This document shows positions 5,045 to 64,000 of a DNA stretch of 64,000 nt, piece by piece. The notes beneath the pieces were generated by a model that worked only from the letters and a program-made list of their open reading frames with translations, was not told the origin of the DNA and searched no databases. A program made the translations under genes and the position numbers. The stretch's first letter is position 1. Each line of letters begins with the position of its first letter. The stretch is from Heterodontus francisci (Eukaryota). Location: positions 1,054,001 through 1,118,000 of the forward strand of contig NW_027140807.1 in assembly GCF_036365525.1 (NCBI RefSeq), written 5' to 3'.

Positions 5045-5275
5045 TGTTTTTGTTGAACTGCTCCATCTCTCTGAGTCACTGTGCAGACTCCAGGCACAGC
5101 AATGCATGGCCGAGTGATTCTCCCACAGGCTGGAGGACTCCAGGTTGAACTGGGCGTCAGTCGGTCACTTGGCGCTGAAACCCCCCACCGTCCCCTCTGA
5201 AATCACACTTGGTACAGCTGGGGAGTAAAACATTATTTTGAAATAAGACCATGAGACTCAGTAACAGATAAATCT
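5045..5275 (-). pseudogene. TCR Vbeta-like segment, copy 2: internally deleted, 3' half plus near-consensus 23-RSS
   Basis: MFYSPAVPSVISEGTVGGFSAK*PTDAQFNLESSSLWENHSAMHCCAWSL (5233-5084), then CACAGTG (5077-5083), 23-nt spacer and ACAAAAACA (5045-5053). The leader remnant (ATG changed to ATT) is fused directly to mid-V. The CAWS ending is Vbeta-like. Confidence 0.88.
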
Positions 5276-5739
5276 TCCACTGGAAGCTTATCCTAAAATT
5301 GGAAAATCAGTGGAAAGAAGAGAGTTGAGTCTTGTGAGAAGCCACATGAAGATTCAAGCAAGTGATTCAGGTTTGCACAACACCTCCCTCCCTGATGGGA
5401 AACCCACGCCCCTCTCTCTACCATTGGCTGCCAGTAGTTGTTGTTGCATTTGTTGGTATAATTTTGAAGTTGTTGTTGTATTTGTTATTGTATTTGCTGG
5501 TGTTTTTCTCCAACTGAGGTTGTTGAATTTGCTGGTGTTTGAATCTCCTGCTGATCTGTTGTTGAATTTGTTGACGCTGTTCTCCTGCTGAGGTAGTTGT
5601 TGTTTTTGTTGGTGTTTTCCCTGCTGAGGTTTTTGTCGTACTTCTTGTTTCCTTCCCTGCTTAAGTTGTTGAATTTTTTTTATGTTGAGGTTGTTGTTTT
5701 AATTTGCAGCTTTTTTCCCTGCTGAGGTTATTTTCCGTT

Positions 5740-6850
5740 TTTTAGCTCATTCATGGGATTTTGGGCGATGCTGGTTGAGGCCAACAATTATTGTCCATCC
5801 CTAATTGCCCCTTGAGAAGGTGGTGGTGAGCTGCCTTCTTGAACCGCTGCAGTCCATGTGGGGTGGGTACACCCACAGTGCTGTTAGGAAGGGAGTTCCA
5901 GGATTTTGACCCACAGTTAGTGAAGGAACAGCCGATATAGTTCCAAGTCAGGATGGTGTGTGACTTGGAGGGGAACCTGCAAGTGGTGGTGTTCCCATGC
6001 ATCTGCTGCCCTTGTCCTTCTAGGTGGTAGAGGTTGCGGGTTTGGAAGGTGTTGACGGAGGGAGCCTTGGTGCATTGCTGCAGTCGATCTTGTAGATGGT
6101 ACACACTGCTGACACTATGCATCAGTGGTTGAGGGAGTGAATGTTTGTAGATGGGGTGCCAATCAAGCGGGCTGCTTTGTCCCGGATGGTGTCGAGCTTC
6201 TTGAGTGTTGTTGGAGCTGCACCCATCCAGGCAAATGGACAGTATTCCATCACACTCCTGACTTGTGCCTTGTGGATGGTGGACAGGCTTTGGGGAGTCA
6301 GGAGGCGAGTTACTCGCCGCATGATTCCTAGCCTCTGACCTGCTCTTGTAGCCACAGTATTTATACGGCTACTCCAGTTCAGATTCTGTTCAATGGCAAT
6401 CCCCAGGATGTTGATAGTGGGGGATTCAGCGATGGTAATGCCATTGAATGTCAAAGGGAGATGGTTATATTCTCTCCTGTTGTAGATGGTCAATGCGTGG
6501 CACTTGTGTGGTGCGAATGTCAGGATTATCAGCCCAAGCCTGGATGTTGTCCAGGTCTTGCTACATCTGAACACGGGCTGCTTCAGAATCTGAGCTGTCG
6601 CAAATGATGCTGAACATTGTGAAATCATCAGTGAACATCCCCACTCTGACCTTATGATTGAAGGGAATTTCATTTATGAAGCAGTTGGAGATGGTGGAAC
6701 AGGACGTACCCGGGGATGGCGATAGCGAGCTCTGTGACATTGTCTGCAAGGCATGATTCCCTGAGTATGACTATGTCAGGTTGTTGCTTGACAGCTCTCC
6801 CAACCTTGGCACAAGGCCCGAAATGTTGGTAAGGAGGACCGTGCAGATTC
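5740..6850 (-). mobile_element. CR1-group LINE, RT and 3' region, disrupted
   Basis: FTDD RT motif, SPTINILGI..LNWSS..AGQRLGIMRR..QVRSVMEY..LDTIRDKAARLI; inserted in the AAC minisatellite. Confidence 0.85.
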
Positions 6851-7089
6851 AATTTGTTGTTGCATCTGCTGCTGTGTTTCACCTGCTGAAGTTGTCTTTG
6901 TTGCTTTTCTCCTCCTGACGCACTTCTTGAATTCTGTTGGTGTTTTTTTCTCCTCCTGACATTGGTTGGTGAGCTTTTTTTTGCCAACGTTGCTTCTGAA
7001 TTTGTTGGTGTTTTCCCTCGCTGAGGCTGTTGTTGAATTTGTTGATGCTTTTCGTGCTGAGGTTTTTGTTGCATTTGTTGTATTGCCCA

Positions 7090-7445
7090 GAGGAGGTTAC
7101 AGAGATAAGGAGGGTTGTAGGGCTGGAGGAGGTTACAGTGATAGGGAGTATTGTAGGGGCTGGAGGAGGTTACAGTGATAGGGAGTATTGTAGGGGCTGG
7201 AGGAAGTGACAGAGAGAGGGAGGGATGTAGGGCTCGAGGAGGTTTCAGAGATAGAGAGGATTGTCGGGGCTGGAGGAGGTTACAGAAATAGGGAAGCTTG
7301 TCGGGGGCTGGAGCGGGTTACGGAGATAGGGAGGGTTGCATTACCTTAAGCAGGATACAGACATAGGGAGGATTGGAGGAGCTGGAGGAGGTTACAGAGA
7401 TAGGGTGGGTTGTAGGGGCTGGAGGAGGTTACAGAGACAGGGATA
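7090..7445 (+). repeat. 37-bp minisatellite, about 9 copies
   Basis: Unit ggaggaggttacagagatagggagggttgtaggggct. Confidence 0.9.
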
Positions 7446-9864: not shown

Positions 9865-10011
9865 GTCAATCCGTCGTGGTGTATATAGGGGTTGGAGCTG
9901 ACACTGAGACTGACACTGTTCACAGCAGAGTGGACCCGAGACTGAGGAGCAAGCAGCTGGAACTGAACCGACAACATCTCCCACCCAGTGACACCTCCAT
10001 TGGAGACTCTG
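9865..10011 (+). promoter_or_regulatory. Putative promoter (CAAT 9867, TATATA 9882-9887) and non-coding exon 1 of D8C gene A
   Basis: TATA-like box followed about 125 bp later by a strong donor G/GTAAGC at 10012; both are conserved in the paralogue (57962, 58092). Confidence 0.55.
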
Positions 10012-10458
10012 GTAAGCAGTCGGGTGTGGGAGGACTGTTAGAAAAAGCAAAGGAGTTTGTCACTTGCTAGGTGTTGACCCAAGGACTGTGTGTCCTGCTT
10101 CTCCTGAAACAACACCATCTCCATGAATAACCTTTGTCAGAAATTCAAAGAGGTTCGTTACAGGGATGCAGGAGACAGACCTGGAGGAGAGAGTCAGGAA
10201 CACATGTGGTTTATTCATAAAAGTTTTGGAGAGTGGAAAGGGTGAAGGATTGGAGTCAAGTTCCTGATGTTTAACAAGAACATGTAGCTGAACTCTCCTC
10301 TGTCTCTAAGAGCCCCAGTGAGAGAGCGATAATTAGATGGAGCTCACTCTCTGAACTCCTCGGCAACTCCCTATTTTATATTCCCTCCAATTTCCCTACT
10401 CGGTAATCTCTCTCAAATGTTTGTCTTGTGTTTCCCTTTCCAGAATCTCACCAGTAAG

Positions 10459-10492
10459 ATGTGGACTCTGCTGATCATTCTGGGTTACCTGA
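10459..10492 (+). CDS. Gene A signal-peptide exon (MWTLLIILGYL)
   Basis: Acceptor ccctttcCAG at 10441-10443, ATG in AAGATGT context, phase-1 donor GTGAGT. Splicing gives MWTLLIILGYLNSALT-DPC, a typical cleavable signal. Confidence 0.85.
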
Positions 10493-13400
10493 GTGAGTAA
10501 CTTTCATTCTCGACAAAGTTCACCCCCAGTACAACTGGAACAAGCTGTGCTTATTCACGCCATTAAATAGAATAATCTCCCAAATCTGATTGAAGAAATG
10601 TCTGACACGGCAGGGAAGGAGATGATTGGAGGTCTGACTGTTAGTTTAAAAGAGCAGACGGAGGTGGAGAGGCAGAAAGGTTTAGGAGGCCAGACATCTT
10701 GAAGCCACATCAGACAGTGTTGGAGGAAAGGGAGTGGAGGGAAGTTCGACAGGAGGCTTGGGTCAGAGAAACAGAGAGTTGGTGAAGATTACAGAAATGA
10801 GGTGGGAGAGGCCGTAGAGGTCATGAAAGAATTTGAACAGGAAGATGGAAATTGTACATCAAAGGCATTTGCAGCTGTGAACCAATGTGTGTCAGTGAGC
10901 ACAGGGGTGATGTGTGACTTAAACTTTCTGCAAGATAACATACAACAGCAGTGTGTTGGAGGAGACCTGACTTCTGGAAAGTGGAAGCTGGGAGGCTGGC
11001 CAGGAGAGGATTAGAAGATTTGATTCTCTCGAAGGTTGAGGGTTTTAGGTAGAGGATTGGCTGAGGCAAAATCAGTGATGACGGATATTAAGGAGGTTGT
11101 AATTGGCTGCCTTTGTGATGAAGAGGCTTCAGGGAAGGAAGCTGGGCTCAGTCGGAAGCAGGGCCGTGTGCTGATGAGAAATAGGAGAGGGGCAAGATAG
11201 ATTCTCGGGGTACCCTCGAGGTAACAGTGCCGGAGTGGGTAGGGAAGACACTGCAGGAGATTCTCTGGCTGAGACGAGGTTGGGTTGAGTGGAAGTAGGT
11301 GAGAGCAGTTCCACCCAGCTGGACTTGGAACGAGAGGTGTTGGCAGAGGGTAATGTGGTGAATTGTGTCAAAGACTGCCGACAGTTCGAGAAGGATGATC
11401 AGAAACAGTATTCCTGACTTGGCTCTTGCAGCTTCACTGCTGCTCAAACCCTTCACCAGTTATTTGGCACCTCTAGACTTGACTATTCCAAAGACCTCCT
11501 GGCTGATCTCTCACATTCCACCTTCCGTACATTGAGGTCATCCAATATGATACTGCCCAAGTCCCATTCTCCTTTCATCTCCGTGCTCACTGACCGACAC
11601 TGGCTCCCGGTTCAGCAAGGCCTGGATTTCAATATTCTCACAATCGTTTTTAGATCCTTCCATCACCTCGCCGTTCCCTACTGCTGAAATCATCTCCAGC
11701 CCCACAACCCTCAGAGATCTCTGCGCTACTGTAATTCAGGCCTCTTGAGTATTCCCGATTTGAATCCCTTCCACCATTGGCAGCTGTGCCTTCACCTGCC
11801 GAGGCTTAACGCTATGGAATTCTATCCCTCAACTTCTCCGTCTCTCCACCTCTCTTTCATCCTTTCAGAGACTCCTTAAAACCTCCTCTTTGACATTGCA
11901 TTTGGCCACCTGCCCTACCAGCTGCTTCTGTGGATCAGTGTCAGTTCGGGATGGTAACACACCGATGAAGTGCCTCGGGGCATTTTATTCCATCAAAGGC
12001 ACGACATAAATGCATATTGTTGTTGGTTTTGGGACTAAACGTTCCCTCTCCAGGACCCACCATTCACATTGGGTCGCTTGTTCTCCACCTGGCAGTTCTC
12101 GCTCCTCCTCCACTTTACATCTTTCCGACTGGGACGAAGTGAAGCTGAGATATTTACTGCTTTCTGTTCCCTGAGAGCTGGTGGTTAATCTAGAATAGGG
12201 AGGACTGTCTGTGAGCAGTGAGTTAGAGGGGGAGGCTGAGCTGGGAGACAGATGGAAACCCAGTTTAGAGAAGGAGGAAATTTTCCAGCTTTAATCTGGG
12301 GGGTTTTGACCAGGGCGGAGGTTGTAACTGAGATTATTGGTATTTTGGGATGGTGAAAGGCGCTGTGTAACATTAACTGTACTTTATATTAACATTAAAC
12401 ATCTTTGTGTCACTCAATCACAGACTCTGCACTCACTGACCCGTGTGTAAATCATACAGTCCTGGACCAGCCCTGGAGGAGCATCGATTGTACAGGGACT
12501 GAGTGCTCCGGTCAGGTGAAGTGTGATCGGTATCTTGTTCAAGGATGGTACAGATTTAACAGGTAATGTAAAGGAACAAATTCTGGGTAAATCAGTTAAT
12601 GAGGGAGGATTAAGGGATTTCCCCCAGTTTCTGGTACTCTCTGCTGGTACCAGTCTCTCTAAAAATTAATATTTACCATCAGTTCAAGGACTGACTCTGT
12701 GATTGTTGTTTCAGTTCTGGTGGATGGAAGATTCCGGACACTGTTGTCCCAGATAGCCACTGCTCCACAAAGCGTCCAGGCTGGTTACAGGGTAATTTCA
12801 GCCTTTATAATATCAGATTTACATTCACTGTCCAGCACTGTTCACATGGGTTACATTCTTCAATATTTATAAACTCTCATTTCAGGTTCCCATCCCAGTG
12901 TGGGACAGGGGGAAGTAACACGGACAGTTTGTTTCAACAGGGATGGAAATCGCTGCCACAGGACCCAGAAAATAAAGATCAAAAACTGCAGCAGTTATTT
13001 TGTTTATGCGCTGAAGCCTCCACCTGTCTGTAACGCTGCTTATTGCACAGGTAGATTGCTGTTTGTATATGGTGCAGATGGGTGATTCTGGGATGTCCCG
13101 TGTCACCCACAAAAATGAGACAGTTTACGCACTGCCCTCCTTTTTGTGAGGGACACAGTGAATATCGGATCTGTAAAACAGGGTGAACTCTTCACTAAAA
13201 CTCTAGGGAACTGAACCAGATGCTCGCTGTCTGGAGAGAGGGCTGGCATGTCTGGGTATTATTCTGTCAAGAATGCACTTGAGGATTCAGGTTTTCTAGT
13301 GAGTGTCAGACACAGCAGCAGGATCCTGACAGACTCTATGTGAAGGGCAGTCACTCTCGTCTCACCTCTTGAGTTCCACTCTTTTGTCCGTGTTTGAACC

Positions 13401-16400
13401 ACAGCTATGATGAGGTCTGGAGCTGAGTGACCCTGGCGGAGCACAAACTGACCATCACTGAACAGGTAATTGCTGAGCAAGTATCATTTGATAGCACTGT
13501 CGATGACACCTTCCATCATTTGACTGATGATAGAGAGTAGACTGATGGGACGGTAATTGGGTGGGTTGAACTTGCCCTGCTTTGACTTGTCATGCTTTTT
13601 ATGCACAGGACATGCCTGAGCAGATTTACACATTGCAGGGTAGATGCCAGTGTTGTAGCTGTACCAGAATAGCTTGGCTCAGGATGCAACAAGTTCTGGA
13701 GCACAGGTCTTCAGTACTACTTCAGGGATATTGTCAGGGCCCATAGCATTTGCAGTATTCAATGCCTTCAGTCATTTCTTGATATCACCTGGAGTGAATC
13801 GAATTGTCATCTGTGATGTTGGGGACTTCAGGAGCAGGCCGAGGTGGATCATCTACTCGGCACTTCTGGCTGAAGATGGTTGCAAATGCTTGAGTCTTAT
13901 CTTTCGCACTAATGTGCTGGGCTCCCTGATCTTTGAGGATGGGGATATTTCTGGGGCCTCCTCCTCCAGTTAGTTGTTTAATTATCTACTGCCCTTTATG
14001 ACTGGATGTGGCAGGACTGCAGAGCTCAGATCTGATCCGTTGGTTATGGGATCGCTTAGCTCTGTCTATCACATGCTGCTTCTGCTGTTTGGCACGCAGA
14101 TTGTCCTGGGTTGTAGTTTCACCAGGCTGACACCTCATTTTGAGGTATGCCTTGTGCTGCACTTTACATGCCCTCCTGCACTTTTCATTGAACCATGTTT
14201 GGTCTCCTGGCTTGATGGTCATGATAGAGTGGGGAATATACCGGACCATGAGGTTACAGATTGTGGTTGAGTACAATTCTGCTGCTGCTGTTGTTCCCAC
14301 AGCACCTCATGGATGCCCATTGTTGCATTGCTAGATTTGTTTGAATCTATCCCATTTAGCATGGTGATAGTGCCAGACAACACGATGGATGGTATCCTCA
14401 ATGTAAAGGCGGGACTTCGTCTCCACAAGGACTGTGCGGTGGTCACTCCTACCAATACTGTCATGGATATGTGGCAGGCAGATTGGTGAGGATGAAGTCA
14501 AGTATATTTTCACCTCTTGTTGATTCTGTCATCATCTGCCACAGTCGCAGACTAGCAGCTATGTCCTTTAGGACTCAGCCAGCTCGGTCAGGAGTGGGCG
14601 GCAGTGATTGAGGGGAGTGGGATGTAGTGAATGTGGGGAGTGGGATGTCGTGACTGAGGGGAGGGGGATGCAGTGACTGAGGGGAGTGGGATGCAGTGAC
14701 TGAGGGGAGTGGGATGCTGTAATTGAGGGAAGTGGGATGTAGTGACTGATGAGTGAGATGTGGTAACTGATGGGAGTAGGATGTAGAGATGCGGGGAGTG
14801 AGGTGCAGTGCTTGAAGGGAATGGTACGGTATGATTCGGTGGACCTTGTGTGGTAACATAGAGAAGTGGGATGCAGTTATTGAGGGGAGTAGGATGCCGT
14901 GACTGAGTGGAGTGGGATACACAGACTGAGGGGAGTGGGATGCAGTGACTGAGGGGAGCTGGATGCAGTGACTGAGGGGAGTGTGATATAGTGACTGAGG
15001 GGAGTGGAATACAGTGACTGTGGGGAGTGTGATGCAGTGACTGAGGGGAGTGTGATACAGTGACAGTGGGGAATGGGATACAGTGACTGAGGGGAGTGTG
15101 ATACAGTGACTGAGGGGAGTGTGATACAGTGACTGAGGGGAGTGGGATACAGTGACTGAGGGGAGTGGAATACAGTGACTGTGGGGAGTGTGATACAGTG
15201 ACTGAGGGGAGTGTGATACAGTAACTGAGGGGAGTGTGATCCAGTGACTGTGGGGAGTGGGATACAGTGACTGAGGGGAGTGGAATACATTGACTGAGGG
15301 GAGTGGAATACAGTGACTGTGGGGAGTAGGATACAGTGACTGAGGGGAGTGTGATACAGTGACTGAGGAGAGTGTGATACAGTAACTGAGGGGAGTGGAA
15401 TACAGTGACTGAGGGGAGTGGAATACAGTGACTGTGGGGAGTGGGATGCAGTGACTGAGGGGAGTGTGATCCCTTACATTTATCTTCACATCCTCCTCGC
15501 TTTCACTTGTCACTTGAACTTTTCCCAGTTCTGATGTCAGGTCACATATTAACATTAAACATCTTTCTGTCACTCAGTCACAGACTCTGCACTCACTGAC
15601 CCGTGTGTAAATCACACAGTCCTGGACCAGCCCTGGAGAAGCAGCGATTGTGATGTCACTGGGTGCTCCGGTCAGGAGAAGTGTGATGATAATCTTCACT
15701 TCGGATGGTACCGATTTAAAAGGTAATGTAAAGGAACAATTTCAGGGTAATCTAGTCAATATGGGCAGAGTAAGGGACTTCCCCCAGTTTCTGGTCCTAT
15801 TTGCTGGTACCAGTCTCTCTAACAGTTAATATTTACCATCAGTTCAGGGACTGACTCGATGATTGTTATTTCAGTTCTGGTGGATGGAAGATTCCGGAGA
15901 CTGCTGTCCCACATCATCGCTGCTCCACAAATGTTACAGGCTGGTTACAAGGTAATTTCAGCCTTTATAATATCAGATTTACATTCACTGTCCAGCACTG
16001 TTCACATGGGTTACTGTCTTCAATATTTATAAACTCTCATTTCAGGTTCCCATCCCAGCGTGGGACAGGGGGAAGTAACACGGACAGTTTGTTTATACTG
16101 GGGTAGAAAACACTGCGACAAGGTCCATGAGATAAAGATCAAAAACTGCAGCAGTTACTTCGTTTATGAGTTGAAGTCGTTGTTTCGTTGTGCTGCGTAT
16201 TGTACAGGTACTTTGATGCTTCTATATCATCCAGAGGGTGAAACTGGGATGTCCCGTGTCACCCACAGAAATGAGACAGTTTACTCGCTCCCCTCCTTAT
16301 TGTCAGGGACACAGTGAATAAAGGATCTGAAACACAAAGTGTACTTCACTGAAACTCTAGGGAACTGAACCAGACTCTGCTGTCCCTGTCTCTCAGGCAC

Positions 16401-19400
16401 TCTGATCCCTGCAGTGTTCATGGCTCACGTCAGGTCCCCACTGCAGTGCTGGGCACCTCACACTCCCTCTCCAGGAAACAATGTTCATGAAGAGTCGGAT
16501 TGGATGGTCGAGTGTTTGATAAAGATGAAAATCTGACACTGTCTGGACTCGAGTACTTAATACATGAGCTCTTTGGGTTTTCTCCACTCTGCCCTCTTCC
16601 TTTATTACAGATCCAGAGACTGTCGCAACTGAGGAACCCGAGGAACAAACAACTCGAGTATCCACGAGGGGATCATCGTCTACCCCTGCGGTGTCTGGAA
16701 CATCAGGTACCCCCCTTGTGGGTCCATTCGAAACAGGTTCCACACCCAATGTTACATCATAGAAGATCAGTCCTGGAGATCATCCAGTCTCTTACTGAGG
16801 GAAGTGGGATGGAGTGATTGAGGGAATTGGGATGAGTGACTGAGGGGAGTGGAATGTAGTGACTGAGGGGAGTGGATGCGGTGACTGAGGGGAGTGGGAT
16901 GGGGTGACTGAGGGGAGTGGGCTGGGGTGACTGAGGGGAGTGGGATGTAGTGACTGAGTGGAGTGGGATGTAGTTACTGAGGGGAGTGGGATGTGAACAA
17001 AGAACAAAGAACAAAGAAAATTACAGCACAGGAACAGGCTCTTCGGCCCTCCAAGCCTACGCCGATCCAGATCCTCTATCTAAACCTGTCGCCTATTTTC
17101 TAAGGGTCTGCATCTCTTTATTTCCTGCCCATTCATGTATCTGTCTAGATACATCTTAAAAGACGCTATCGTGCCCGCGTCTACCACCTCCACTGGCAAT
17201 GCATTCCATGCACCCACCACCCTCTGCGTAAATAACTTTCCACGCATATCTCCCCTAACCTTTTCCCCTTTCTCTTTGAACTCGTGTCCCCTTGTAATTG
17301 AATCCCCCACTCTGGGAAAAAGCTTCTAGCTATCCACCCTGTCTATACCTCTCATGATTTTGTGCACCTCAATCATGTCCCCCCTCAAGCTCCTTCTTTC
17401 TAATGAAAATAATCCTAATCTACTCAACCTCTCTTCATAGCTAGCGCCCTCCAAACCAGGCAACATCCTGGTGAACATCCTCTGCACCCTCTCCAAATCA
17501 TCCACATCCTTTTGGTAATGTGGCGACCAGAACTGCACGCAGTATTCCAAATGTGGCCGAACCAAAGTCCTATACAACTGTAACATGACCTGCCAACTCT
17601 TGTACTCAATGACCCGTCCGATGAACGAAAGCATGCCGTATGCCTTCTTGACCACTCTATTGACCTGCGTTGCCACCTTCAGGGAACAATGGACCTGAAC
17701 ACCCAAATCTCTCTGTACATCAATTTTCCCCAGGACTTTTCCATTTACTGTATAGTTCACTCTTGAATTGGATCTTCCAAAATGCATCACCTCGCATTTG
17801 CCCTGATTGAACTCCATCTGCCATTTCTCTGCCCAACTCTCCAATCTATCTATATTCTGCTGCATTCTCTGACAGTCCCCTTCACTATCTGCTACTCCAC
17901 CAATCTTAGTGTCGTCTGCAAACTTGCTAATCAGACCACCTATACTTTCCTCCAAATCATTTATGTATATCACAAACAACAGTGGTCCCAGCACAGATCC
18001 CTGTGGAACACCACTGGTCACACGTCTCCATTTTGAGAAACTCCCTTCCACTGCTACTCTCTGTCTCCTGTTGCCCAGCCAGTTCTTTATCCATCTAGCT
18101 AGTACACCTTGGACCCCATGCGCCTTCACTTTCTCCATCAGCCTACCATGGGGAACCTTATCAAACGCCTTACTGAAGTCCATGTTTCCGACATCTACAG
18201 CCCTTCCCTCATCAATCAACTTTGTCACTTCCTCAAAGAATTCTATTAAGTTGGTAAGACATGACCTTCCCTGCACAAAACCATGTTGCCTATCACTGAT
18301 AAGCCCATTTTCTTCCAGATGGGGATAGATCCTATCCCTCAGTATCTTCTCCAGCAGCTTCCCTACCACTGACGTCAGGCTCACCGGTCTATAATTACCT
18401 GGATTATCCCTGCTACCCTTCTTAAACAAGGGGGCAACATTAGCAATTCTCCAGTCCTCCGGGACCTCACCCGTGTTTAAGGATGTAGCAAAGATATCTG
18501 TTAAGGCCCCAACTATTTCCTCTCTCGCTTCCCACAGTAACCTGGGATAGATCCCATCCGGACCTGGGGACTTGTCCACGTTAATGCCTTTTAGAATACC
18601 CAACACTTCCTCCCTCCTTAGGCCGACTTGACCTAGAGTAATCAAACATCTGTCCCTAACCTCAACATCCGTCATGTCCCTCTCCTCGGTGAATACCAAT
18701 GCAAAGTATTCATTTGGAATCTCACCCATTTTCTCTGACTCCACACATAACTTTCCTCCTTTGTCCTTGAGTGGGCCAATCCTTTCTCTAGTTACCCTCT
18801 TGCTCCTTATATATGAATAAAAGGCTTTGGGATTTTCCTTAACCCTGTTTGCCAATAATATTTCATGACCCCTTTTAACACTCTTAATTCCTCGTTTCAG
18901 ATTGTGCCTACAATCCCGATATTCTTTCCAAGCTTCGTCATTCTTCAGCCGCCTAGACCTTATGTATGCTTCCTTTTTCCTCTTAGCTGGTCTCACAATT
19001 TCACCTGTCATCCATGGTTCCCTAATCTTGCCATTTCTATCCCTCATTTTCACAGGAACATGTCTCTCCTGCACACTAATCAACCTCTCTTTAAAAGCCT
19101 CCCACATATCACATGTGGATTTACCTTCAAACAGCTGCTCCCAATCTGCATTCCCCAGCTCCTGCCGAATTTTGGTATAGTTGTCCTTCCCCCAATTTAG
19201 CACTCTTCCTTTAGGACCACTCTTGTCTTTGTCCATGAGTATTCTAAACCTTACGGAATTGAGATCACTATTCCCAGAGTAGTCCCCTACTGAAACGTCA
19301 ACCACCTGGCCCGGCCCATTCCCCAACACCAGGTCCAGTATGGCCCCTTCCCGAGTTGGACTATTTACATACTGCTCTAGAAAACCCTCCTGGATGCTCC

Positions 19401-45252: not shown

Positions 45253-45313
45253 TTCGGCATGACTGGGTGGGCCGAAGGGTCTGTTTCAATGCTGTATCTC
45301 TAATAAATATTAA

Positions 45314-52023: not shown

Positions 52024-52024
52024 A

Positions 52025-52377
52025 GGAGTAAAACATCAGCCGCGGCTCCTTCGCCTGTCCTGTCTGTACCAGAACATGGAACCGTTACCCTCACCCTCCA
52101 CACGACACTCCAGTCCTACTCCCTCCCTAGGAAGTCTGGAGATGGCGGTGGAAGCTGACGGACCCTCGCTGAGATCGTGCCTGGGGGAAGAGACAGGGAG
52201 AGAAGAAGATCAGTGAACAGGGACAATCTGGAATGTGAGGAATGAAGGAAGGAGAGAAAGATAGAGAGAAAGACAATAAGAAAGAGAGCTGTTAGCACAA
52301 ACAATGGGGGTGTGGGGTGGTGGTGAGAAAGATCCCTTACTTTGAAATAAGACCATGAGACTCAGTAACAGATACAT
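52025..52377 (-). pseudogene. TCR Vbeta-like segment, copy 3 (leader 52341-52377; V exon 52180-52025), frameshifted and 3' truncated
   Basis: MYLLLSLMVLFQ/GTAAG; STISARVRQL, frameshift, TAISRLPREGVGLECRVEGEGNGSMFWYRQD, frameshift, KEPRLMFYS; no RSS (replaced by CR1). Confidence 0.85.
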
Positions 52378-52854
52378 CTTCCACTGGAAGCTGATCCTGC
52401 AATTGGGAAATCAGTGGAAAGAAGAGAGTTGAGTCTTGTGTGCAGCCACATGAAAACTCAAGGAAGTGATTCAAGTTTGCACAACACCTCCCTCCCTGAT
52501 GGGAAACACACACCCCTTTCTCTACCATTGGCTTCCACTCGTTGCTGTTGAATTTGTTGGTATCATTCTGCTGCTGAAGTTGTTGGTGTATTTGTTGCTG
52601 TATTTGCTGGTGTTTTTCTCCGACTGAGGTTGTTGAATTTGTTGGTGTTTGAATCTCCTGCTGATCTGTTGTTGAATTTGTTGGCGTTGTTCTCCTGCTG
52701 AGGTAATTGTTGTGTTGGTTGGTGTTTTCCCTTCTGAGGTTTTTGTTGAGGTTGTTGTTTCCTTCCCTGCTTAACTTGTTGTTGCATTTTTTAATGTTGT
52801 GGTTGTTGTTGTATTTTTTTGCGTTTATATTCCCTGCTGAGGTTACTTTCTCTT

Positions 52855-53985
52855 TTTGAATTCATTCTTGAGATTTTGGGCGATGCTGCTGGAGGCCAGC
52901 ATTTATTGTCCATCCTTTTCGCCCCTTGAGAAGGTGGTGGTGAGCTGCCTTCTTGAACTGCTGCAGTCCATGTGGGGTAAGTACACCCACAGTGCTGTTA
53001 GGAAGGGAATTCCAGGATTTTGACCCAGCGACAGTGAAGGAACGGCGATATAGTTCCAAGTCAGGATGGTGTGTGACTTGGAGGGGAACCTGCAAGTGAT
53101 GGTGTTCCCAAGGATCTGCTGCCCTTGTCCTTCTAGGTGGTAGAGGTCCAGGGTTTGGAAGGTGCTGACGAGGGAGCCTTGGTGCATTGCTGCAGTGCAT
53201 CTTGTAGATGGTACACATTGCTGCCACTGAGCATCGGTGGTGGAGGGAGTGAAAGTTGTGGATGGGTGGAGGGAGTGAAAGTTTGTTGATGGTTTGCCAA
53301 TCAAGCGGACTGCTTTGTCCTGCATGGTGTCGAGCTTCTTGAGTTTTGTTGGAGCTGCACCCATCCAGGCAAGTGGAGAGTATTCCATCACACTCCTGAC
53401 TTGTACCTTGTAGATGGTGGACAGGCTTTGGGGAGTCAGGAGGTGAGTTGCTTGTCACAGGATTTCTAGCCTCTGTCCTGCTCTTGAAGCCACAATATTT
53501 ATATGGCTATCCCAGTTCAGTTTCTGGTCAATGGTAACCCTTTAGGATGTTGATAGTGGGGGATTCAGCGATGTTAATTCCATTGAATGTCAAGGGGAGA
53601 TGGTTAGATTCTCTTTTAATTGAGATGGTCATTGCCTGGCACTTATGTGACACGAATGTTTCTTGCCAATTATCAGCTCAAACCTGGATGTTGTCCAGGT
53701 CCTGCGACATCTGAACACGGGCTGCATCAGAATCTGAGGTGTCACGAATGATGCTGAACATTGTGCAATCATCAGTGAACATCCCCACTTCTGATCTTTT
53801 GATTGAAGGGAGTTCATTGATGAAGCAGTTGAAGATTGTGGGACAGGACATACCCGGGGATGGGGATGACGAGGTGTGTGACATTGTCTGTAAGGCATAA
53901 TTCCCTGAGTATGACGATGTCAGGCTGTTGCTTGACAGCTCTCCCAACTTTGGCACAAGCCCCTAAATGTTGGTAAGGAGGATTT
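52855..53985 (-). mobile_element. CR1-group LINE (duplicate of 5740-6850)
   Basis: MEYSPLAWMGAAPTKLKKLD, FTDD. Confidence 0.85.
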
Positions 53986-54239
53986 TGCAGGTTCGACATG
54001 TTGTTGCATCTGTTGCTGTGTTTCGCCTGCTGAAGTTGTATTTATTACTTTTCTCCTCCTGAAGCACTTGTTGAATTCTGTTGATGTTCTTTCTCCTCCT
54101 GACGTTGTTGTATTTGTTGGTGAGCTTTTTTTTTGCCAAAGTTGCTTCTCAAATTGTTGGTGTTTTCCCCTGCTGAGGTTGTTGTTGAATTTGTTAATGA
54201 TTTTCGTGCTGAGGTTTTTGTTGCATTTGTCGTATTGCC

Positions 54240-55505
54240 CGGAGGAGGTTACAGAGATAGGGAGGAATGTTGGGGCTGGAGGAGGTTACAGAGAAAGGGA
54301 GGGTTGTCAGGCGGGAGGAGGTTACAGAGATAGGAAGGGTTGTAGGGGTCTGGAGGAGGTTACAGAGAGAGGGAGGCTTCTTGGGTCTGGAGGAGGTTAC
54401 AGAGAAAGGGAGGGTTGTCGGGCAGGAGGAGGTTACACAGATAGGAAGGGTTGTAGGGGCTGGAGGAGGTTACAGAGATAGGGAGGGATGTTGGGGCTGG
54501 AGGAGGTTACAGAGAAAGGGAGGGTTGTCGGGCGAGAGGAGGTTACACAGATAGGAAGGGTTGAGGGGCTGGAGGAGGTTACAGAGATAGGGAGGGATGT
54601 TGGGGCTGGAGGCAGTTACAGAGATAGGGAGGGTTGTAGGGGCTGGAGGAGGTTACAGAGATAGGGAGGGTTGTTGGGCTGGAGGAGATTACAGTGATAG
54701 GGAGGGTTGTTGGGGCTGGAGGAGGTTACAGTGATAGGAAGGTTTGTAGGGGCTGGAGATGGTTACAGAGATAGGGACGTTGTTGGGGCTGGAGGCTGTT
54801 ACAGAGATAAGGGGCTTGTAGGGGCCGAAGGAGGTTACAGAGATAGGGAGGCTTGTTGGTTCTGAAGGAAGTTACAGAGATAGGGAGAGTTGTCGGGATG
54901 GAGGAAGCTACAGAGATAGGGAGGGTTGTAGGGGCTGGAGGAGGTTACAGTGTTAAGGAGGGTGGCAGGGTCTGCAGGAGGCTACAGAGATGGGGATGGT
55001 TGTCGGGCTGGAGGAAGCTACAGAGATAGGGAGGGTTGTAGCGGCTGAAAGAGGTTACAGAGATAGGGATGGTTGTTGGTGCTGAAGGAAGTGACAGAGA
55101 TAGGGATGGTAGTCGGGCTGGAGGAAGCTACAGAGATAGGGAGGGTTGTAGGGGATGGTGGAGGTTACAGAGATAGGGAGCATTGTAGGCTGGAGGAGGT
55201 TACAGAGATAGGGAGGGTTGTACGGGATGGACGAGGTTACAGAGATCGGGACGGTTGTAGACTGGGGGAGGTTACAGACATAGCGTTGGTTTTCGGGGCT
55301 GGAGGTCATTACAGAGATCGGGATGGTTGTCGGGGCTAGAGGAAGTTACAGAAACAGGGAAGGTTGTCGGAGTTTGGAGGAGGTTACAGATGTCGGAAGG
55401 GTTGCATTATCTTATGGAGGTAGCAGAGATAGGGAGGGTTGCATTACCTTGAGGAGATTGCTGTGATAGGGAGGGCTGTAGGAGCTGCAGGAGGTTACAG
55501 AGAGA
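54240..55505 (+). repeat. 37-bp minisatellite, about 34 copies
   Basis: Same unit as 7090-7445. Confidence 0.92.
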
Positions 55506-57944
55506 GTGATATCTCTCACTGATCATGGAATGTATTCACTGTCAACCCCAGTATCATTCTGGTGAATCTCAGCTGTATCTGGTCGGTGGCCAACAGCTGC
55601 TTGCTGAGGTAAGGTGTCCAGACTGAGTGCAATATTCCGGACATAGTCTAACCAGAGCCTCCTACAACTGTGGCATTACCTCCAAACCCTTTGTATTTTA
55701 GACTCTTTCATTAATCACACGTTCAATAATGCATGACTGGATGCATGCACACACACACTCCCAACTCTCACTCCCTCTCTCTCTCTCTCTCCTCAGTTTG
55801 TTTGACTATGTTGTTAGTTGTGCACCTTTGCCCTTCAGCTGATCTTACCTGTGCCTATGATGTGAAGAGTCTATTGTTCTCAGTCCTTGACAAACACAAC
55901 AGCTTCCTGCTTTGTAAAGGTTGATATTTTCCTATCAGTGACACACGGCACAACATTCAAATCTGTTAGTCCCAGGGAATGCAAATATCAAAGCCGGCTC
56001 AGAAGTGTTAATGGGTCCATTGTGGGACTGAATGAATATCTGAGAACCTGGCATGGACACAGGGGCACTGACAGAATCAGCAATCCAGTGAGAATGGAGA
56101 CAGTGGAAACTATCAAGGACTAGGCGTTGGACATGGGCTGGTTGGAACTGAGATGCACATTCAGACGCCCCTTTTCACAGGCAGTGTAACATTGAGTAAC
56201 AATGTGCTGCAAGGTGATTGTGATTACTGAGGGGACAGTGACATTGTGATTCTGTCACAGGAATATTATCTAGAACCCTGGACTGACTGCACTGCCCAAT
56301 GTGCTAATGATCTAACAGAGAAATGTGGGGACAGACGAATCCCACCCCATCAGAAACAAATCCTAGAATAGTACAACAGAGGGAGGCCATTCGGCCCATC
56401 GAGGGTTTGTCATCTCTTTCGAAAATCAACCCAGTTCATCCAACTCCGCTCTCTTTCACCGTTTCCCTCAATTTATTCCCCTTCAAATATTGAGCCAATT
56501 CCCTTTTTGAATAATACCATTGAATTTCCACCACCCTATCAGACATTGCCCTCCAAATCCAAACCACTCATGATATTAAAAAACATTTATCCTCATGTCA
56601 CCTCTGGTACCTTTGCCCATCACATTAAAGATGTGCCCTCTGGTGATCTATCGAATCTCCCCTTAACCTTCTCTGCTCTAAGGAGAACGTCCCTTTCTAG
56701 CCCAGTCTTTTTACTTGACTGAAATTCCTCACCAACTGAACCATCCGAGCAAATCTCTTCTGCACCCTCTCCAAAGCCTGCAGGTCTTTCCGAAAGTGTG
56801 GTGCCCAGAACTGGGCACAATATTCCAACAGGGGCCGACCTGGTGGTTTATACAGGTTTGGCATGACTCCCGGACTTTTGTACTCGACGTCTCTATTTAC
56901 AAAGCCCAGACGCCAATCTGATTTATTGATCGCTTTCTCAACCTACCCTGTCACCTTTAAATATTCCTGCACAAGCATCCCCCAGGTCTCTCTGTTCTTG
57001 CACCACTTCACAAATTGTATTGTTTCATCTCTCCTCATTCTTGCAGTCAAAATCAAACATATCAAAGACTAATCCCACCCATATCTGGGACAAATTACCC
57101 GCTTATTATTATTCAGTCAGTAATGGACAATGGTCTGCCAGTAACTCTATAAAGTTTACATACAACACTTTTCCTTCCGTAAAACAATATTCTCGGTGAT
57201 TCTTGTATTGAAGTTTATACCGAAATCCCACTGCTATCCCAATGTTAGCAGGTGTGGAGCAGTCAGTGACTGAGACATTAACATTTGGTCAGGGACCCCT
57301 CACAATATCCCATGTCCTGAATACTCAAACACTCTCTCACTGAGAAATTTATGTCCTCCTCATTCTGGTTTGTATGTGTTACTAACGCTGTATCTGTGCT
57401 ATTTAGGAGATGGTATCACTGTCGCTGATGTGAGGATTTCATTGTTCTCATTCTGTGACTACATTCTGAAAAACACAATCATTTACTTTAACCCCAACGA
57501 CCTCAGGGAGGAAAATGGATGTCTGATCATTTGTCTCTCTGGAACATATTGTTTCTCTGGCCCTCTCATCATCCCCCCAATACTGACCCACTACTGATAA
57601 GAGAGGCATGTCTCCTGGGAATATTCTCTCCCTAACATTCAGTCCCTATGAAAGATCAAATATACACAGACAATTTGAAAATACCGACACAATACTGACT
57701 ATAATTTTCAGAGACCCAGCCCCAGGCTCCAATCTCCCTACACCCTTCCTGTTGGGTAAGTGACGACAAGTTATGTTACAACAGCAAAGTCCAGTTGGTT
57801 AGCAAAGGCCCAGGAGAAATATTAACTTGCTTTATTATGGCAGCTCCTTTCACCGAAAGGCCTTCGTTTGCATAGATTATGTCATATTATTAATTATTAC
57901 TGAATGTAAATATTTCAGCCAACCAGCACTGCGGTCAGTCACTG

Positions 57945-58091
57945 GTCAATCCGTCGTGGTGTATATAGGGGTTGGAGCTGTCACTGAGACTGATACTGTT
58001 CACAGCAGAGTGGACCCGAGACTGAGGAGCAAGCAGCTGGAACTGAACCGACAACATCTCCCACCCAGCGACATCTACTTTGGAGACTCTG
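57945..58091 (+). promoter_or_regulatory. Putative promoter and non-coding exon 1 of gene B
   Basis: TATATA 57962-57967; donor GTAAGC at 58092. Confidence 0.55.
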
Positions 58092-58555
58092 GTAAGCAGT
58101 CGGGTATGGGAGGACTGCTCGAAACAGCACAGGAGTTTGTCATTTGCTAGGTGTTGACCCAGGGGGAATGTGTCCTGCTTTTCCTGAAACAACACCATCC
58201 TCAGTAATAACCTTTGTCAGAAATTCAAAGAGGTTCGTTACAGGAATGCAGGAGACAGACCTGGAGGAGAGAGTCAGGAACACATGTGGTTTGTTCATAA
58301 AAGTTTTGGAGAGTGGAAAGGGTGAAGGATTGGAGTCAAGTTCCTGATGTTTATCAAGAACATGTAGTTGAGCTCACCTCTGTCTGTAGGAGCCACAGTG
58401 AGAGAGAGAGAGATAGATGGAGCTCACCTCTCTGAACAGATATACTGACAAACTCCTCTTCAACTCCTTATTTAATATTCCCTCCAATTGCACGATTCCT
58501 TTAGTTCTCTCAAATGTTTGTCTTGTGTTTCCCTTTCCAGGATCTCACCAGTAAG

Positions 58556-61149
58556 ATGTGGACTCTGCTGATCATTCTGGGTTACCTGAGTGAGTAACTT
58601 TCATTCTCGACAAAGTTCACCCCCAGTACAACTGGAACAAGCTGTGTTTATTCAAACCGTTATATAGAATAATCTCCCAAGATGTTGCACAGAAATCTGA
58701 TGGAAGAAATGTCTGACACGGCAGGGAAGGAGATGATTGGAGGGCTAACTGTTAGTTTAAAAGAGCAGACGGAGGTGGAGAGGCAGAAAGGTTTAGGAGG
58801 CTGGACATCTTGAAGCCACATCAGACACTGCTGGAGGAAAGGGAGTGGAGGGAAGTTCTACAGGAGGCTTGGGTCAGAGAAACAGAGAGTTGGTGAAGAT
58901 TACAGAAATGAGGTGGGAGAGGGTGGAGAGGTCATGAAAGAATTTGAACAGGAAGATGGAAGTTGTACATCAAAGGCGTTTGCAGCTGTGAACCAATGTG
59001 GGTCAGAGAGCACAGGGGTGATGTGTGACTTAAACTTTCTGCAAGATAACATGCAACAGCAGTGTGTTGGAGGAGACCTGACTTCTGGAAAGTGGAAGCT
59101 GGGAGGCTGGCCAGGAGTGGATTAGAAGATTTGATTCTCTAGAAGGTAGAGGGTTTTTGGTAGAGGATTGGCTGAGGAAAAATCAGTGATGGTGGATATT
59201 ACGGAGGTTGTAATTGGATGCCATTGTGATGAGGAGGCTACAGGGAAGGAAGCTGGGCACAGTCGGAAGCTGATGAGAAATTGGAGAGGGACAAGATAGA
59301 TTCTCGGGGTACCCTAGAGGTAACAGTGCTGGAGTGGGTAGGGAAGACACTGCAGGAGATTCTCTGGCTGAGACTAGACTGGGTTGAGTGGAAATAGGCC
59401 AGAGCAGTTCCACCCAGCTGGACATGGAAGGAGAGGTGTTGGCGATGTATAGTGTGGTGAATTGTGTCAAAGACTGCCGACAATTCGAGAAGGATGATCA
59501 GAAACGGTATTCCTGACTTGGCTCTTGCAGCTTCACTGCTGCTCAAACCCTTTACCAGTTCTTTGGTACCTCTAGACTTGACTATTCCAAAGATCTCCTG
59601 GCTGATCTCTCACATTCCACCTTCTGTACATCTTGGTCATCCAGTATGATACTGCCCAAGTCCCGTTCACCTTTCATCTCTGTGCTCACTGACCTGCACT
59701 GGCTCCCGGTTCAGCAAGGCCTGGATTTCAATATTCTCACAATCGTTTCCAGATCCTTCTATCACCTCGCCGTTCCCTACCGCTGAAATCATCTCCAGCC
59801 CCACAACCCTCGGAGATCTCTGCGCTCCTCTAATTCAGGCCTCTTGAGTATTCCCGATTCGAATCCCTTCCACTATTGGCAGCTGTGCCTTCACCTGCCG
59901 AGGCTTAACGCAAGGGAATTCTCTCCCTCAACTTCTCCGTCTCTCCACCTCTCTTTCATCCTTTCAGACACTCCTTAAAACCTACCTCTTTGACATAGCA
60001 TTTGGCCACCTGCCCGACCAGCTGCTTCTGTGGATCGGTGTCAGTTCGGGATGGTAACACACCGATGAAGTGCTTTGGGACATTTTATTACATCAAAGGC
60101 AGTACATAAATGCAGGTTGTTGTTGGTTTTGAGACTACACGTTCCCTCTCCAGGACCCACCAGTCACACTGGGTCGCTTGTGCTCCACCTGGCAGTTCTC
60201 GCTCCTCCTCCACTTTACATCTTTCCAACTGGGATGAAGTGAAGCTGAGATATTTACTGCTTTCTGCTACCTGAGAGCTGGTGGTTAATCTAGAATAGGG
60301 AGGACTGTCTGTGAGCAGTGAGTTAGAGGGGGAGGCTGAGCTGGGAGACAGATGGAAACCCAGTTTAGAGAAGGAGGACATTTTCCAGCTTTAATCTGGG
60401 GGGTTTTGACCAGGGCGGAGGGTGAAACTGAGATTATTGGTATTTTGGGAGGGTACAAGGCGCTGTTTAACATTAACTGTACTTTATATTAACATTAAAC
60501 ATCTTTCTGTCACTCAGTCACAGACTCCACACTCACTGACCCGTGTGTAAATCACACAGTCCTGGACCAGCCCTGGAGGAGCATCGATTGTACTGGGACT
60601 GAGTGCTCTGATCAGGTGAAGTGTGATCAGAATCTTGCTCAAGGATGGTACAGATTTAAAAGGTAATGTAAAGGAACAAATTCTGGGTAAATCAGTTAAT
60701 GAGGGAGGAGTAAGGGATTTCCCCCAGTTTCAGGTACTATCTGCTGTTACCAGTCTCTCTAACAGTTAATATTTACCATCAGTTCAGGGACTGACTCTGT
60801 GATTATTGTTTCAGTTCTGGTGGATGGAAGATTCCGGACACTGTTGTCCCAGATAGCCACTGCTCCACACGTGCCTCAGGCTGGTTACAGGGTAATTTCC
60901 GTCTTAAAAAATCAGATTTTCATTCACTGTCCAGCACTGTTCACATGGGTTACATTCTTCAATATTTATAAACTCTCATTTCAGGTTCCCATCCCAGTGT
61001 GGGACAGGGGGAAGTAACGAGGACAGTTTGTTTTAACAAGGCTGGAAATCGCTGTCACTGGACCCAGGAAATAAAGATCAAAAACTGCAGCAGTTATTTT
61101 GTTTATGAGTTGAAGCCTCCACCTGACTGTGAAGCTGTTTATTGTACAG
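58556..61149 (+). CDS. Gene B (5' part; continues beyond the window): signal peptide plus first D8C domain
   Basis: Exons 58556-58589, 60524-60662, 60815-60891 and 60985-61149: MWTLLIILGYLNSTLTDPCVNHTVLDQPWRSIDCTGTECSDQVKCDQNLAQGWYRFKSSGGWKIPDTVVPDSHCSTRASGWLQGSHPSVGQGEVTRTVCFNKAGNRCHWTQEIKIKNCSSYFVYELKPPPDCEAVYCT. Open frame and intact splice sites. Confidence 0.9.
58690..60125. mobile_element. L2 relics (duplicate of 10570-12025)
   Basis: LIILLELSAVFDTIHHTIHRQHLS..LGGTALAYFHS. Confidence 0.75.
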
Positions 61150-61409
61150 GTAGATTGCTGTTCATGGTGCAGATGGGTGATTCTGGGATGTCCCGTGTCA
61201 CCCATAGAAATGAGACAGTTTACTCACTGCCCTCCTTTTTGTAAGGGACACAGTGAATAAAGGATCTGTAAAACAGAGTGAACTCTTCACTAAAACTCTA
61301 GGGAACTGAACCAGACGCTCGCTGTCTGGAGAGAGGGCTGGCATGTCTGGGTAGTATTCTGTCAGGTCTACAATTGAGGAGATTCAGGTTTTCTGGTGAG
61401 TATCAGACA

Positions 61410-62660
61410 CAGCAGCAGGATCCTGACAGACTCTATGTGAAGGGCAGTCACTCTCACCTCACCTCTTGAGTTCCACTCTTTTGTCCATGTTTGAACCACA
61501 CTGTAATGAGGTCAGGTGCTGAGTGACCCCGGCGGAACCCAAACTGACCATCACTGAACAGGCGATTGCTGAGCAAGTACCACTTGATAGCACTGTCGAT
61601 GAGACCTTCCATCATTTTACTGATGATAGAGAGTAGACTGATGGGACGGTAATTGGGTGGGTTGAACTTGCCCTGCTTTGACTTGTCCTGCTTTTTATGT
61701 ACAGGACATGCCTGGGCAGTTTTCCACATTGCAGGGTAGATGCCAGTGTTGTAGCTGCACTGGAACAGCTTGGCTAAGGATGCAACAAGTTCTGGAGCAC
61801 AGGTACTTCCGCGATATTGTCAGGGCCCATAGCCTTTGCAGTATCCAGTGCCTTCAGTCATTTCTTGATATCAAGTGGAGTGAATCGAATTGGCTGAAGA
61901 CTGGCATCTGTGATGCTTGGGACTGCAGGAGAAGGCCGAGATGTCTCATCAACTCGGCACTTCTGGCTGAAGAATTTTGCAAATGCTTCAGCCTTATCTT
62001 TCGCACTGATGTGCTGGGCTCCCTGATCATTGAGGATGGGGATGTTTGTGGGGCCACCTCCTCCAGTTAGTTGTTTAATTGTCTACTGCCATTCACGACT
62101 GGATGTCGCAGGACTGCAGAGCTTAGATCTGATCCGTTGGTTATCGGATCGCTTAGTTCTGTCGATCACATGCTGCTTCTGCTGTTTGGCATGCAGATAG
62201 TCCTGGGTTGTAGCTTCACCAGGCTGACACCTCATTTTGAGGTATGCCTTGTGCTGCACTTTGCATGCACTCTTCATTGAACCACGTTTGGTCTCCTGGC
62301 TTGATGGTCATGATAGAGTGGGGGGATATACCGGACCATGAGGTTACAGATTGTGGTTGAGTACATTTCTGCTGCTGCTGTTGTTCCCACAGCACCTCAT
62401 GGATGCCCATTGTTGCATTGCTAGACTTGTTTGAATCTATCCCATTCAGCACGGTGATAGTGCCACACAACACGATGGACGGTATCCTCAATGTGAAGGC
62501 GGGACTTCGTCTCCACAAGGACTGTGCGGTGGTCACTCCCACCAATACTGTCATCAGCAGATGGTTATGTGGCAGGCAGATTGGTGAGGATGACGTCAAG
62601 TATATTTTCTCCCCTTGTTGGTTCTGTCATCACCTGCCGCAGTCCCAGACTAGCAGCTCG
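61410..62660 (-). mobile_element. CR1-group LINE fragment (duplicate of 13325-14590)
   Basis: WKTAQACPVHKK..NYRPISLLSIISKMMEG..QFGFRRGHSAPDLI. Confidence 0.88.
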
Positions 62661-64000
62661 GTCAGGAGTGGGCTGCAGCGACTGAGGGCAGTGGGATGTA
62701 GTGACTGAGGGGAATGAGATGTAGTGACTGAGGAGAGTGGGATGCAGTGAATGTGGGGAGTGGGATGTAGCGACTGAGGGGAGGGGGATACAGTGACTGA
62801 GGGGAGTGGGATACAGTGACTGAGGGTAGTGGGATGTAGTGACTGAGGGGAGTGGGGTATAGTGACTGAGGGGAGTGGGATGTAGTGACTGAAGGGAGTG
62901 GGATACAGTGACTGAGGGGAGTGGGATGTAGTGACTGAAGGGAGTGGGATGCTGTAATTGAGGGAAGTGGGATGCAGTGACTGATGAGTAGGATGTGGTA
63001 ACTGAGGGGAGTGGGGTACAGTGACTGAGGGGAGTGGGATGACGAGACTGAGGGGAGTAGGATGTAGTGACTGATGGGAGTGGGATACAGTGACTGAGGG
63101 TAGTGGGGTACAGTGACTGAGGGGAGTGGGATGACGAGACTGAGGGGAGTAGGATGTAGTGACTGATGGGAGTGGGATACAGTGACTGAGGGTAGTGGGA
63201 TGTAGTGACTGAGGGGAGTGGGGTACAGTGACTGAGGGGAGTGGGATGTAGTGACTGAAGGGAGTGGGATACAGTGACTGAGGGTAGTGGGATGTAGTGA
63301 CTGAAGGGAGTGGGGTACAGTGACTGAGGGGAGTGGGATGTAGTGACTGAAGGGAGTGGGATACAGTGACTGAGGGTAGTGGGATGTAGTGACTGAGGGG
63401 AGTGGGGTACAGTGACTGAGGGGAGTGGGATGTAGTGACTGAAGGGAGTGGGATACAGTGACTGAGGGTAGTGGGATGTAGTGACTGAAGGGAGTGGGAT
63501 ACAGTGACTGAGGGTAGTGGGATGTAGTGACTGAAGGGAGTGGGGTACAGTGACTGAGGGTAGTGGGATGTAGTGACTGAGGGGAGTGGGGTACAGTGAC
63601 TGAGGGGAGTGGGATGTAGTGACTGAAGGGAGTGGGATACAGTGACTGAGGGGAGTGGGATGTAGTGACTGAAGGGAGTGGGATACAGTGACTGAGGGGA
63701 GTGGGATGTAGTGACTGAAGGGAGTGGGATGCTGTAATTGAGGGAAGTGGGATGCAGTGACTGATGAGTAGGATGTGGTAACTGAGGGGAGTGGGGTACA
63801 GTGACTGAGGGGAGTGGGATGACGAGACTGAGGGGAGTAGGATGTAGTGACTGAGGGGAGTGGGATGTAGTGACTGAGGGTAGTGGGGTACAGTGACTGA
63901 GGGGAGTGGGATGTAGTGACTGAAGGGAGTGGGATGCTGTAATTGAGGGAAGTGGGATGCAGTGACTGATGAGTAGGATGTGGTAACTGAGGGGAGTGGG
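62660..64000 (+). repeat. 23-bp satellite, homogenised, with higher-order blocks
   Basis: tagtgactgaggggagtgggatg units; the block at 62941 recurs at 63721 and again near 63930. Confidence 0.95.

Follow-up and report, generated by a model that had tools for sequence, protein, structure and literature searches.

D8C-mucin genes with V remnants in a T cell receptor beta region assembled as 21 D-J-C units in the horn shark

A 64,000-nucleotide stretch of the genome of the horn shark Heterodontus francisci (the window; positions 1054001–1118000 of scaffold NW_027140807.1, here C761, which spans 1.99 Mb of a 6.0-Gb assembly) was analyzed for its V segments and D8C genes. We consider it quite probable that the window belongs to a tandem D8C-mucin array, positioned where an inverted array of variable (V) segments has its outer end, within a T cell receptor beta (TRB) region assembled as 21 units of diversity (D), joining (J) and constant (C) elements, and that the V remnant is a likely passenger of segmental duplications. 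The many-copy TRB region is the notable result; the cassette of V remnant and D8C gene is itself ordinary, and hitch-hiking in nested duplications explains it best.

A TRB region of D-J-C units

The window lies within a TRB region. The first-pass annotation, made from the letters of the window, had suggested a search for T cell receptor (TCR) D, J and C exons, and a D-J-C set is found ~90 kb upstream of the window. Scaffold C761 is gap-free (no N) across 664 kb, with D-J-D-J-C at 940–966 kb and D-J-C at 1356–1378 kb, and reads in order: V(+) array, D-J-C, inverted V array, four D8C genes, V(+) array, D-J-C and inverted V array. These 664 kb contain 91 V segments flanked by a recombination signal sequence (RSS), 61 of them open by a V filter that some V types escape and from which two false matches at D segments were removed (93 to 91). 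A further D-J-D-J set stands at C761:4.4–13.6 kb; its own C would be expected beyond the scaffold start, making it a possible 22nd unit. Neither V nor D8C was present in 11 of 20 sampled stretches of scaffold ends and interiors, which were scored for these two elements only.

The C-beta exon has 21 matches at 98–100% identity on six unplaced scaffolds and none on any chromosome-size scaffold of the assembly. Every one of the 21 is open, is accompanied by a transmembrane (TM) exon and splice donors, and is preceded in the correct orientation by D (12/23 RSS) and J. A unit comprises tens of V, 1–2 D, ~12 J and one C, laid out as V(+)n, D-J(-D-J)-C and inverted V(-)n, followed by 2–8 D8C genes head-to-head with the last V segments. 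A minicluster of the shark immunoglobulin (Ig) type (one V, 2–3 D, one J and C) is excluded by the tens of V and 12 J per unit.

The assignment to TRB rests on several features. The V segments carry a 23-RSS and score above the V-set cut-off, and the family YVEQSP...AVYFCA fits the nurse shark beta V2/V3 primers given in the accessible part of PMC5931798. The D elements are flanked by 12- and 23-RSS around a GGGACAGGGGG-type core, and the J elements have a 12-RSS and FGxG. A beta-type C1 exon is spliced to a TM exon with the Tyr/Lys motif: three RNA-type runs contain GT..AG joints between the C exons (399>720, 741>2113 and 2219>3165). The best TCR matches of the C exon in the PDB are beta chains, ranked below a few Ig heavy chains. 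Genes that flank amniote TRB were not found on these unplaced scaffolds: none of 17 Eph matches and none of 6 monooxygenase matches fall there.

The C regions, 3.2 kb long, are on average 1.65% apart and contain 215 variable sites; 3 of 210 pairs are under 0.1% apart, and the regions form 18, 15, 14 and 9 groups at 0.1, 0.3, 0.5 and 1%, respectively. Two haplotypes are unable to give this diversity, but might double the count.

Other C-like exons were also observed. A second, frameshifted C-beta-like exon, ~40–55% identical in parts, stands inverted 16–19 kb after the working C and before the inverted V array. On the strand of this decayed exon no J was found. The exon may descend from an old second TRB in tail-to-tail orientation, and the inverted V genes would then be explained. 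The genome-wide scan for C1-set exons was dominated by Ig constant exons. Long arrays of near-identical C1-set exons occur at C46:16.27–16.87 Mb (~16.5-kb spacing) and C8:115–125 Mb; they are probably Ig clusters, and they show that young amplification is common at receptor loci of this genome.

V remnants and D8C genes in nested duplications

The proposal that a V remnant and a D8C gene were copied together inside a real TRB region is borne out. The first-pass annotation had placed a duplicate block at 5.0–15.5 kb and again from 52.0 kb, and self-comparison finds 5233–15470 repeated at 52337–63569 with 86–92% identity, an offset of 47–48 kb and E=0; the long blocks align at 86.0% across 2268 bp and at 91.1% across 7551 bp. 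The short V+AAC+LINE block, where LINE denotes a long interspersed nuclear element, was also recognized correctly: 21–1232 matches both long blocks. The AAC-type 35–38-bp repeats, the LINE piece, the 37-bp repeat (9.6 and 34.5 copies) and the 23-bp repeat lie where they had been placed, and V and D8C are indeed divergent, standing head-to-head with 4.6–5.5 kb between the V leader and the first D8C exon.

The V pieces of the two long blocks are different halves. V copy 2 (at 5.0 kb) consists of the 3´ half and 23-RSS only, its 5´ half being deleted, and copy 3 (at 52.0 kb) is a 5´ half truncated by a LINE at 52025; the long blocks therefore have just the leader and ~12 bases of the V exon in common. 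Copy 1 is whole but frameshifted and extends out of the window. A second dead V at 1420–1740 was absent from the first-pass annotation, and a protein search with a broken V half gave no match. Copies 1 and 3 are each one base short after WYRQD, as had been read, when judged against the open paralogue at C761:1247204. A common origin of this deletion is likely, although unproven because the site is a short C/G run. The claim that V was dead before duplication holds for this lineage only; other types carry a W-to-stop change or the 5´ deletion, and two open V copies follow the final D8C gene in a run.

An exact-pattern scan returned 39 signal exons of the window D8C subfamily, all on seven TRBV-bearing scaffolds. 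A dead V stands head-to-head within ~7.5 kb of 35 of the 39 genes (32/36 and 3/3), the flank being too short for the other four. By their V, 11 cassettes have the 5´-deleted V and 13 the LINE-cut V, and in 8 a second V family is nearest. The cassette is not a fixed ~48-kb unit, as had been supposed. Spacing is 48.1 kb in the window but ranges over 32.1–52.0 kb in ten intervals on C761, and it tracks the number of mucin exons (2 to 8).

The two sides of the cassette give different trees. The V-side tree separates the cassette types (2 changes vs 14.6 when shuffled), and V-side distances follow those of the promoter (rho 0.63, p 0.001). With the distances of the D8C exons they show no correlation (rho 0.06, p 0.11, n=32; 15 changes vs 17.8), and identical D8C exons are found beside different V types. 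Incongruent trees are one of the refuters that the first-pass annotation had named for itself. Exchange of D8C exons between cassettes is the simplest cause of the disagreement, we infer.

D8C genes also occur apart from TRB. Among the best 150 matches of D8C exon 3, a hand count places at least 113 D8C exons on C325, C1075, C220 and C328, where two-domain genes belonging to a sister subfamily (signal exon 83–86% identical; 3 of 18 rebuilt D8C domains are broken) form multi-megabase arrays. Sampling 200 kb from two of these four scaffolds yielded 9 D8C genes spaced at ~20–25 kb and no V (one spurious match), and 51 of 51 matches of an open V family fall on TRB scaffolds. D8C genes on other scaffolds without V mean that D8C genes multiply without V.

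The D8C gene and its predicted product

D8C gene 1 extends from ~9.9 to 39.9 kb and so beyond 15.5 kb, where the block of the first-pass annotation closed. An untranslated exon and a signal exon are followed by two D8C domains of three exons each, by six Ser/Thr/Pro-rich exons that look intact and by three tail exons (Table 1). Database models of D8C paralogues have the same exon layout. D8C exon 3 exceeds the cut-off of Pfam PF23283, and the domain matches GP2 and uromodulin structures (E 1e-24 to PDB 7p6r). Eight Cys are invariant across 123 compared codons. The exon picker chose an early GT in D8C exon 3, so Cys counts of the rebuilt domains are one too low for rows of 156–159 bases. At the first D8C exon of the window copy (12416–12423), AA stands in place of the usual splice acceptor, and an in-frame AG remains 6 bases downstream.

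Neither a ZP module nor an EGF domain was found, four full-length database models giving PF23283 only. The tail matched no Pfam family, and the ESM Atlas gave no usable lead. The ZP module, EGF domain and glycosylphosphatidylinositol (GPI) anchor of uromodulin, GP2 and omcin are missing, and the stop follows a short tail. The product is predicted to be secreted, with a signal peptide, two D8C domains and mucin-like repeats. Lacking a ZP module, it stands outside the uromodulin/GP2/omcin family, though it likely acts like their decoy part, as a putative glycan decoy for bacterial adhesins. In GP2, the N65 sequon bears the FimH-binding glycan, according to the accessible part of PMC8930769; this sequon (DPCQNYT) aligns with DPCVNH[TS], which is kept in 24 of 24 distinct D8C domains. 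The accessible text of PMC11415648 describes tandem expansion of zebrafish omcins and protection against bacteria. The horn shark genes resemble GP2/uromodulin and omcins in the D8C/D10C domain, the N65-equivalent sequon and the tandem gene expansion (PMC8930769, PMC11415648, as far as their accessible text goes), but their mucin-like repeats and the lack of ZP module and EGF domain mark a member that does not form filaments.

Relatives occur across sharks and skates (29 matches), and spliced transcripts of D8C paralogues are present in the RNA-type runs. The ZP-less D8C mucins are a large shark family, apparently undescribed. Next to each mucin exon, and also next to the second D8C domain, lies a 23-bp minisatellite (window 14591–36361), which may promote changes in exon number. 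Two further LINEs were observed: one inside the D8C gene with an 820-codon open reverse-transcriptase frame (17326–19788, minus strand) and a second, broken one in the spacer (42757–45199, plus strand).

The first D8C domain is free of stops in 36 of 36 genes, and 24 distinct first domains contain no stop where a rough neutral expectation is ~6.8, while the V remnants in the cassettes are dead. The ratio of replacement to synonymous change (pN/pS) of D8C is 0.63, with changes in patches, and 0.69 in the V-free arrays. In the C-beta exons, 11 synonymous and 5 replacement codon variants are present. Both frames, D8C and C-beta, are maintained, and neither result indicates selection for copy number.

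Table 1. Features of the window and sites of the inverted C-beta-like exon (positions are those of the window unless a scaffold is given)
Feature	Position	Strand	Remarks
TRBV pseudogene copy 1, 5´ part of V exon, 1-nt deletion after WYRQD	1..200	-	continues outside the window to 23-RSS at C761:1053882
Leader region of V copy 1	330..440	-	
AAC-type minisatellite (35-36 bp) and LINE fragment, common to all three blocks	564..1232	.	
Second, different dead V with 23-RSS	1398..1740	-	
V copy 2: 3´ half of TRBV exon and 23-RSS (5045-5083); 5´ half deleted	5045..5232	-	
V leader remnant, AAC minisatellite, LINE fragment, second AAC repeat, 37-bp minisatellite (7090-7443)	5233..7443	.	
D8C gene 1, 5´ untranslated exon (start approximate)	9880..10011	+	RNA-type contigs of spliced paralogues, joints 10008>10443, 10011>12417
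D8C gene 1, signal-peptide exon, ATG 10459	10444..10492	+	
First D8C (D10C) domain, 3 exons, open, 10 Cys	12424..13050	+	
23-bp minisatellite, recurring beside each mucin exon; 8-kb array at 28342-36361	14591..15470	.	
Second D8C domain, 3 exons, open	15584..16204	+	
Ser/Thr/Pro/Glu-rich repeat exons, starts near 16611, 22705, 25132, 27882, 30404, 31899	16611..36458	+	
Apparently dead Ser/Thr/Pro/Glu-rich exon copies near 20338 (without AG acceptor) and 36365 (stop)		+	
D8C gene 1, last 3 exons (38080-38139, 39023-39108, 39812-stop)	38080..39907	+	short tail
V copy 3: leader and 5´ half of TRBV exon, two frameshifts, LINE cut at 52025	52025..52440	-	
Second-cassette AAC minisatellites, LINE fragment, 37-bp minisatellite (34.5 copies)	52530..55503	.	
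D8C gene 2: first exons, ATG 58556, first D8C domain 60524-61150	57940..64000	+	extends to ~C761:1139500
Inverted C-beta-like exon	C761:983.0-983.3 kb, 1392.2-1392.5 kb	-	
Inverted C-beta-like exon, further sites	C1317:320.9k; C407:320.5k, 503.1k, 1521.6k		

Order of duplication, alternatives and meaning

The divergences suggest that cassettes arose first, copies of the whole locus next and local tandem gains last. The first V+D8C cassettes would have come from unequal crossing-over whose breakpoint fell within the last inverted V segments, the flanks of type-B cassettes now being 8.8% from those of other types. Blocks of several hundred kb, with V arrays, D-J-C and D8C genes, would then have multiplied, their C regions now being 1.65% apart. 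Local tandem gains would continue, type-B cassettes differing by 0.36% among themselves and standing six in a row at 32 kb. Gene conversion or crossing-over would have swapped D8C exons between cassettes and so uncoupled the D8C tree from the V side.

Several points weigh against this account. All seven scaffolds are unplaced, and retention of both haplotypes could halve the count (at 0.3% there are 15 distinct C regions, at 1% there are 9). The read runs come from one sample, possibly the source of the assembly, and consist of collapsed contigs that lack a single-copy baseline. Reads were compared over C-region and D8C stretches only, and among them there was no rearranged V-D-J read. Gene conversion could make C regions look younger and blur the order of events. 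The signal exon carries a stop at codon 2 in 3 of the 39 D8C genes. The RNA-type contigs over D8C mostly differ by ~4–15% from the window copy, so splicing is seen for the family and not for the window copy, and the proposed decoy function is based on homology only.

Selection for a larger TCR-beta repertoire may tentatively be proposed as the driver of the large-unit amplification, with the D8C genes as passengers at that level. All 21 C exons are open, their variation (12/346 and 4/107 sites) is below that of most flanking introns (24/291, 115/1341 and 51/911), and two paralogue letters at one C position occur at ~82:18 in RNA-type contigs, near the assembled 18:3. However, open frames are partly to be expected in copies this young, the two letters could equally be two alleles, and the local D8C tandem runs without open V are left unexplained.

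The first-pass annotation held that selection on the D8C gene, not on V, drove the amplification. That selection for more D8C protein amplified the cassette and the whole region appears unlikely to us, even though the cassette V remnants are dead beside open D8C domains, the changes cluster in patches between invariant cysteines, and in zebrafish the related omcin genes are expanded and give protection from bacteria (PMC11415648, accessible part). The pN/pS values, here and in the V-free arrays, reveal no overall excess of amino-acid change and reflect upkeep rather than selection for copy number. The arrays elsewhere already hold so many D8C exons that 39 more genes add modestly, and the signal-exon stops lie in three of the youngest tandem copies. 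The larger amplified unit also carries open TRB genes, whose C-beta codon variants are mainly synonymous.

An assembly artefact, through uncollapsed haplotypes or false duplication, is very improbable: although the scaffolds are unplaced, some copies are 100% identical over 661 bp and three C-region pairs are nearly identical, two haplotypes allow two C regions and not 15, units differ in D/J content within one gap-free stretch, and the two window cassettes are 8–14% apart, which largely refutes an artefact for the window. Read contigs match assembled-paralogue letters at 22 of 22 checked positions (of 27), mostly the majority letter, as expected for a collapsed multi-copy family; 21 of these 22 variant letters are present in at least 7 assembled copies and the 22nd in 6. 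Contig depth is 49–52 over C-beta and 71–129 over D8C flanks, a ratio of ~2.2 against 39/21=1.9 assembled, which is weak support since depth is not copy number and has no single-copy baseline.

Nested duplication of a TRB region with passenger D8C genes, the reading preferred here, has partial parallels. In the mammalian TRB locus, trypsinogen genes are interspersed. The first-pass annotation drew this analogy, and in both cases a secreted non-receptor gene family is duplicated with V segments. The likeness is one of position only: no trypsin motif occurs in the 1.47 Mb scanned (one spurious match), and the horn shark carries instead a D8C mucin as passenger, at the far end of its inverted V array. 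Amniote TRB, as far as described in the accessible part of PMC11754216, shares the 23-RSS of V, the 12/23 D with a GGGACAGGGGG core and the inverted V after C. It has one to five inverted V, in contrast to at least 13 in the horn shark, where D8C genes follow; EPHB6- and MOXD2-type domains are on other horn shark scaffolds. Salmonids have 3–4 TRB loci, derived from genome duplication and located on two chromosomes, and likewise possess several complete V-D-J-C loci, some oppositely oriented, compared with 21 young units here; their authors raised the problem of allelic exclusion (PMC10464911, accessible text). Four is the highest TRB count that we found in print, in the part of that paper available. 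According to a review, cartilaginous fishes have their TCR genes in a translocon, as mammals do (PMC6795676). The accessible parts of PMC12227049, PMC2192082, PMC11372145, PMC3457774 and PMC1845163 hold nothing on TRB copy number. The literature search, outside of which most subscription papers and all supplements fell, returned no paper joining shark, T cell receptor and D8C and no annotation of the locus.

Rast and Litman (1994, PNAS) reportedly described a horn shark TCR-beta 'multicluster', in which blots and library screens are said to have suggested many V, J and C copies. Each unit found here is a translocon with tens of V, 1–2 D, ~12 J and one C rather than a one-V minicluster, and D8C genes reportedly formed no part of the multicluster. 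Named Heterodontus francisci proteins are 95–100% identical to the loci described here. If true, a species with as many as 21 open, near-identical TRB units would decide this old claim. On balance, we lean towards the view that the MHC (major histocompatibility complex)-restricted T-cell repertoire of the horn shark would draw on ~10–20 separately rearranging TRB loci, the largest number known, with one receptor per cell enforced across loci as for shark IgH clusters, and that the amplicon would couple these loci to fast-shuffling secreted bacterial-decoy mucins. Locus exclusion at an MHC-restricted receptor would then be directly testable, because the units differ enough to be distinguished in single cells.

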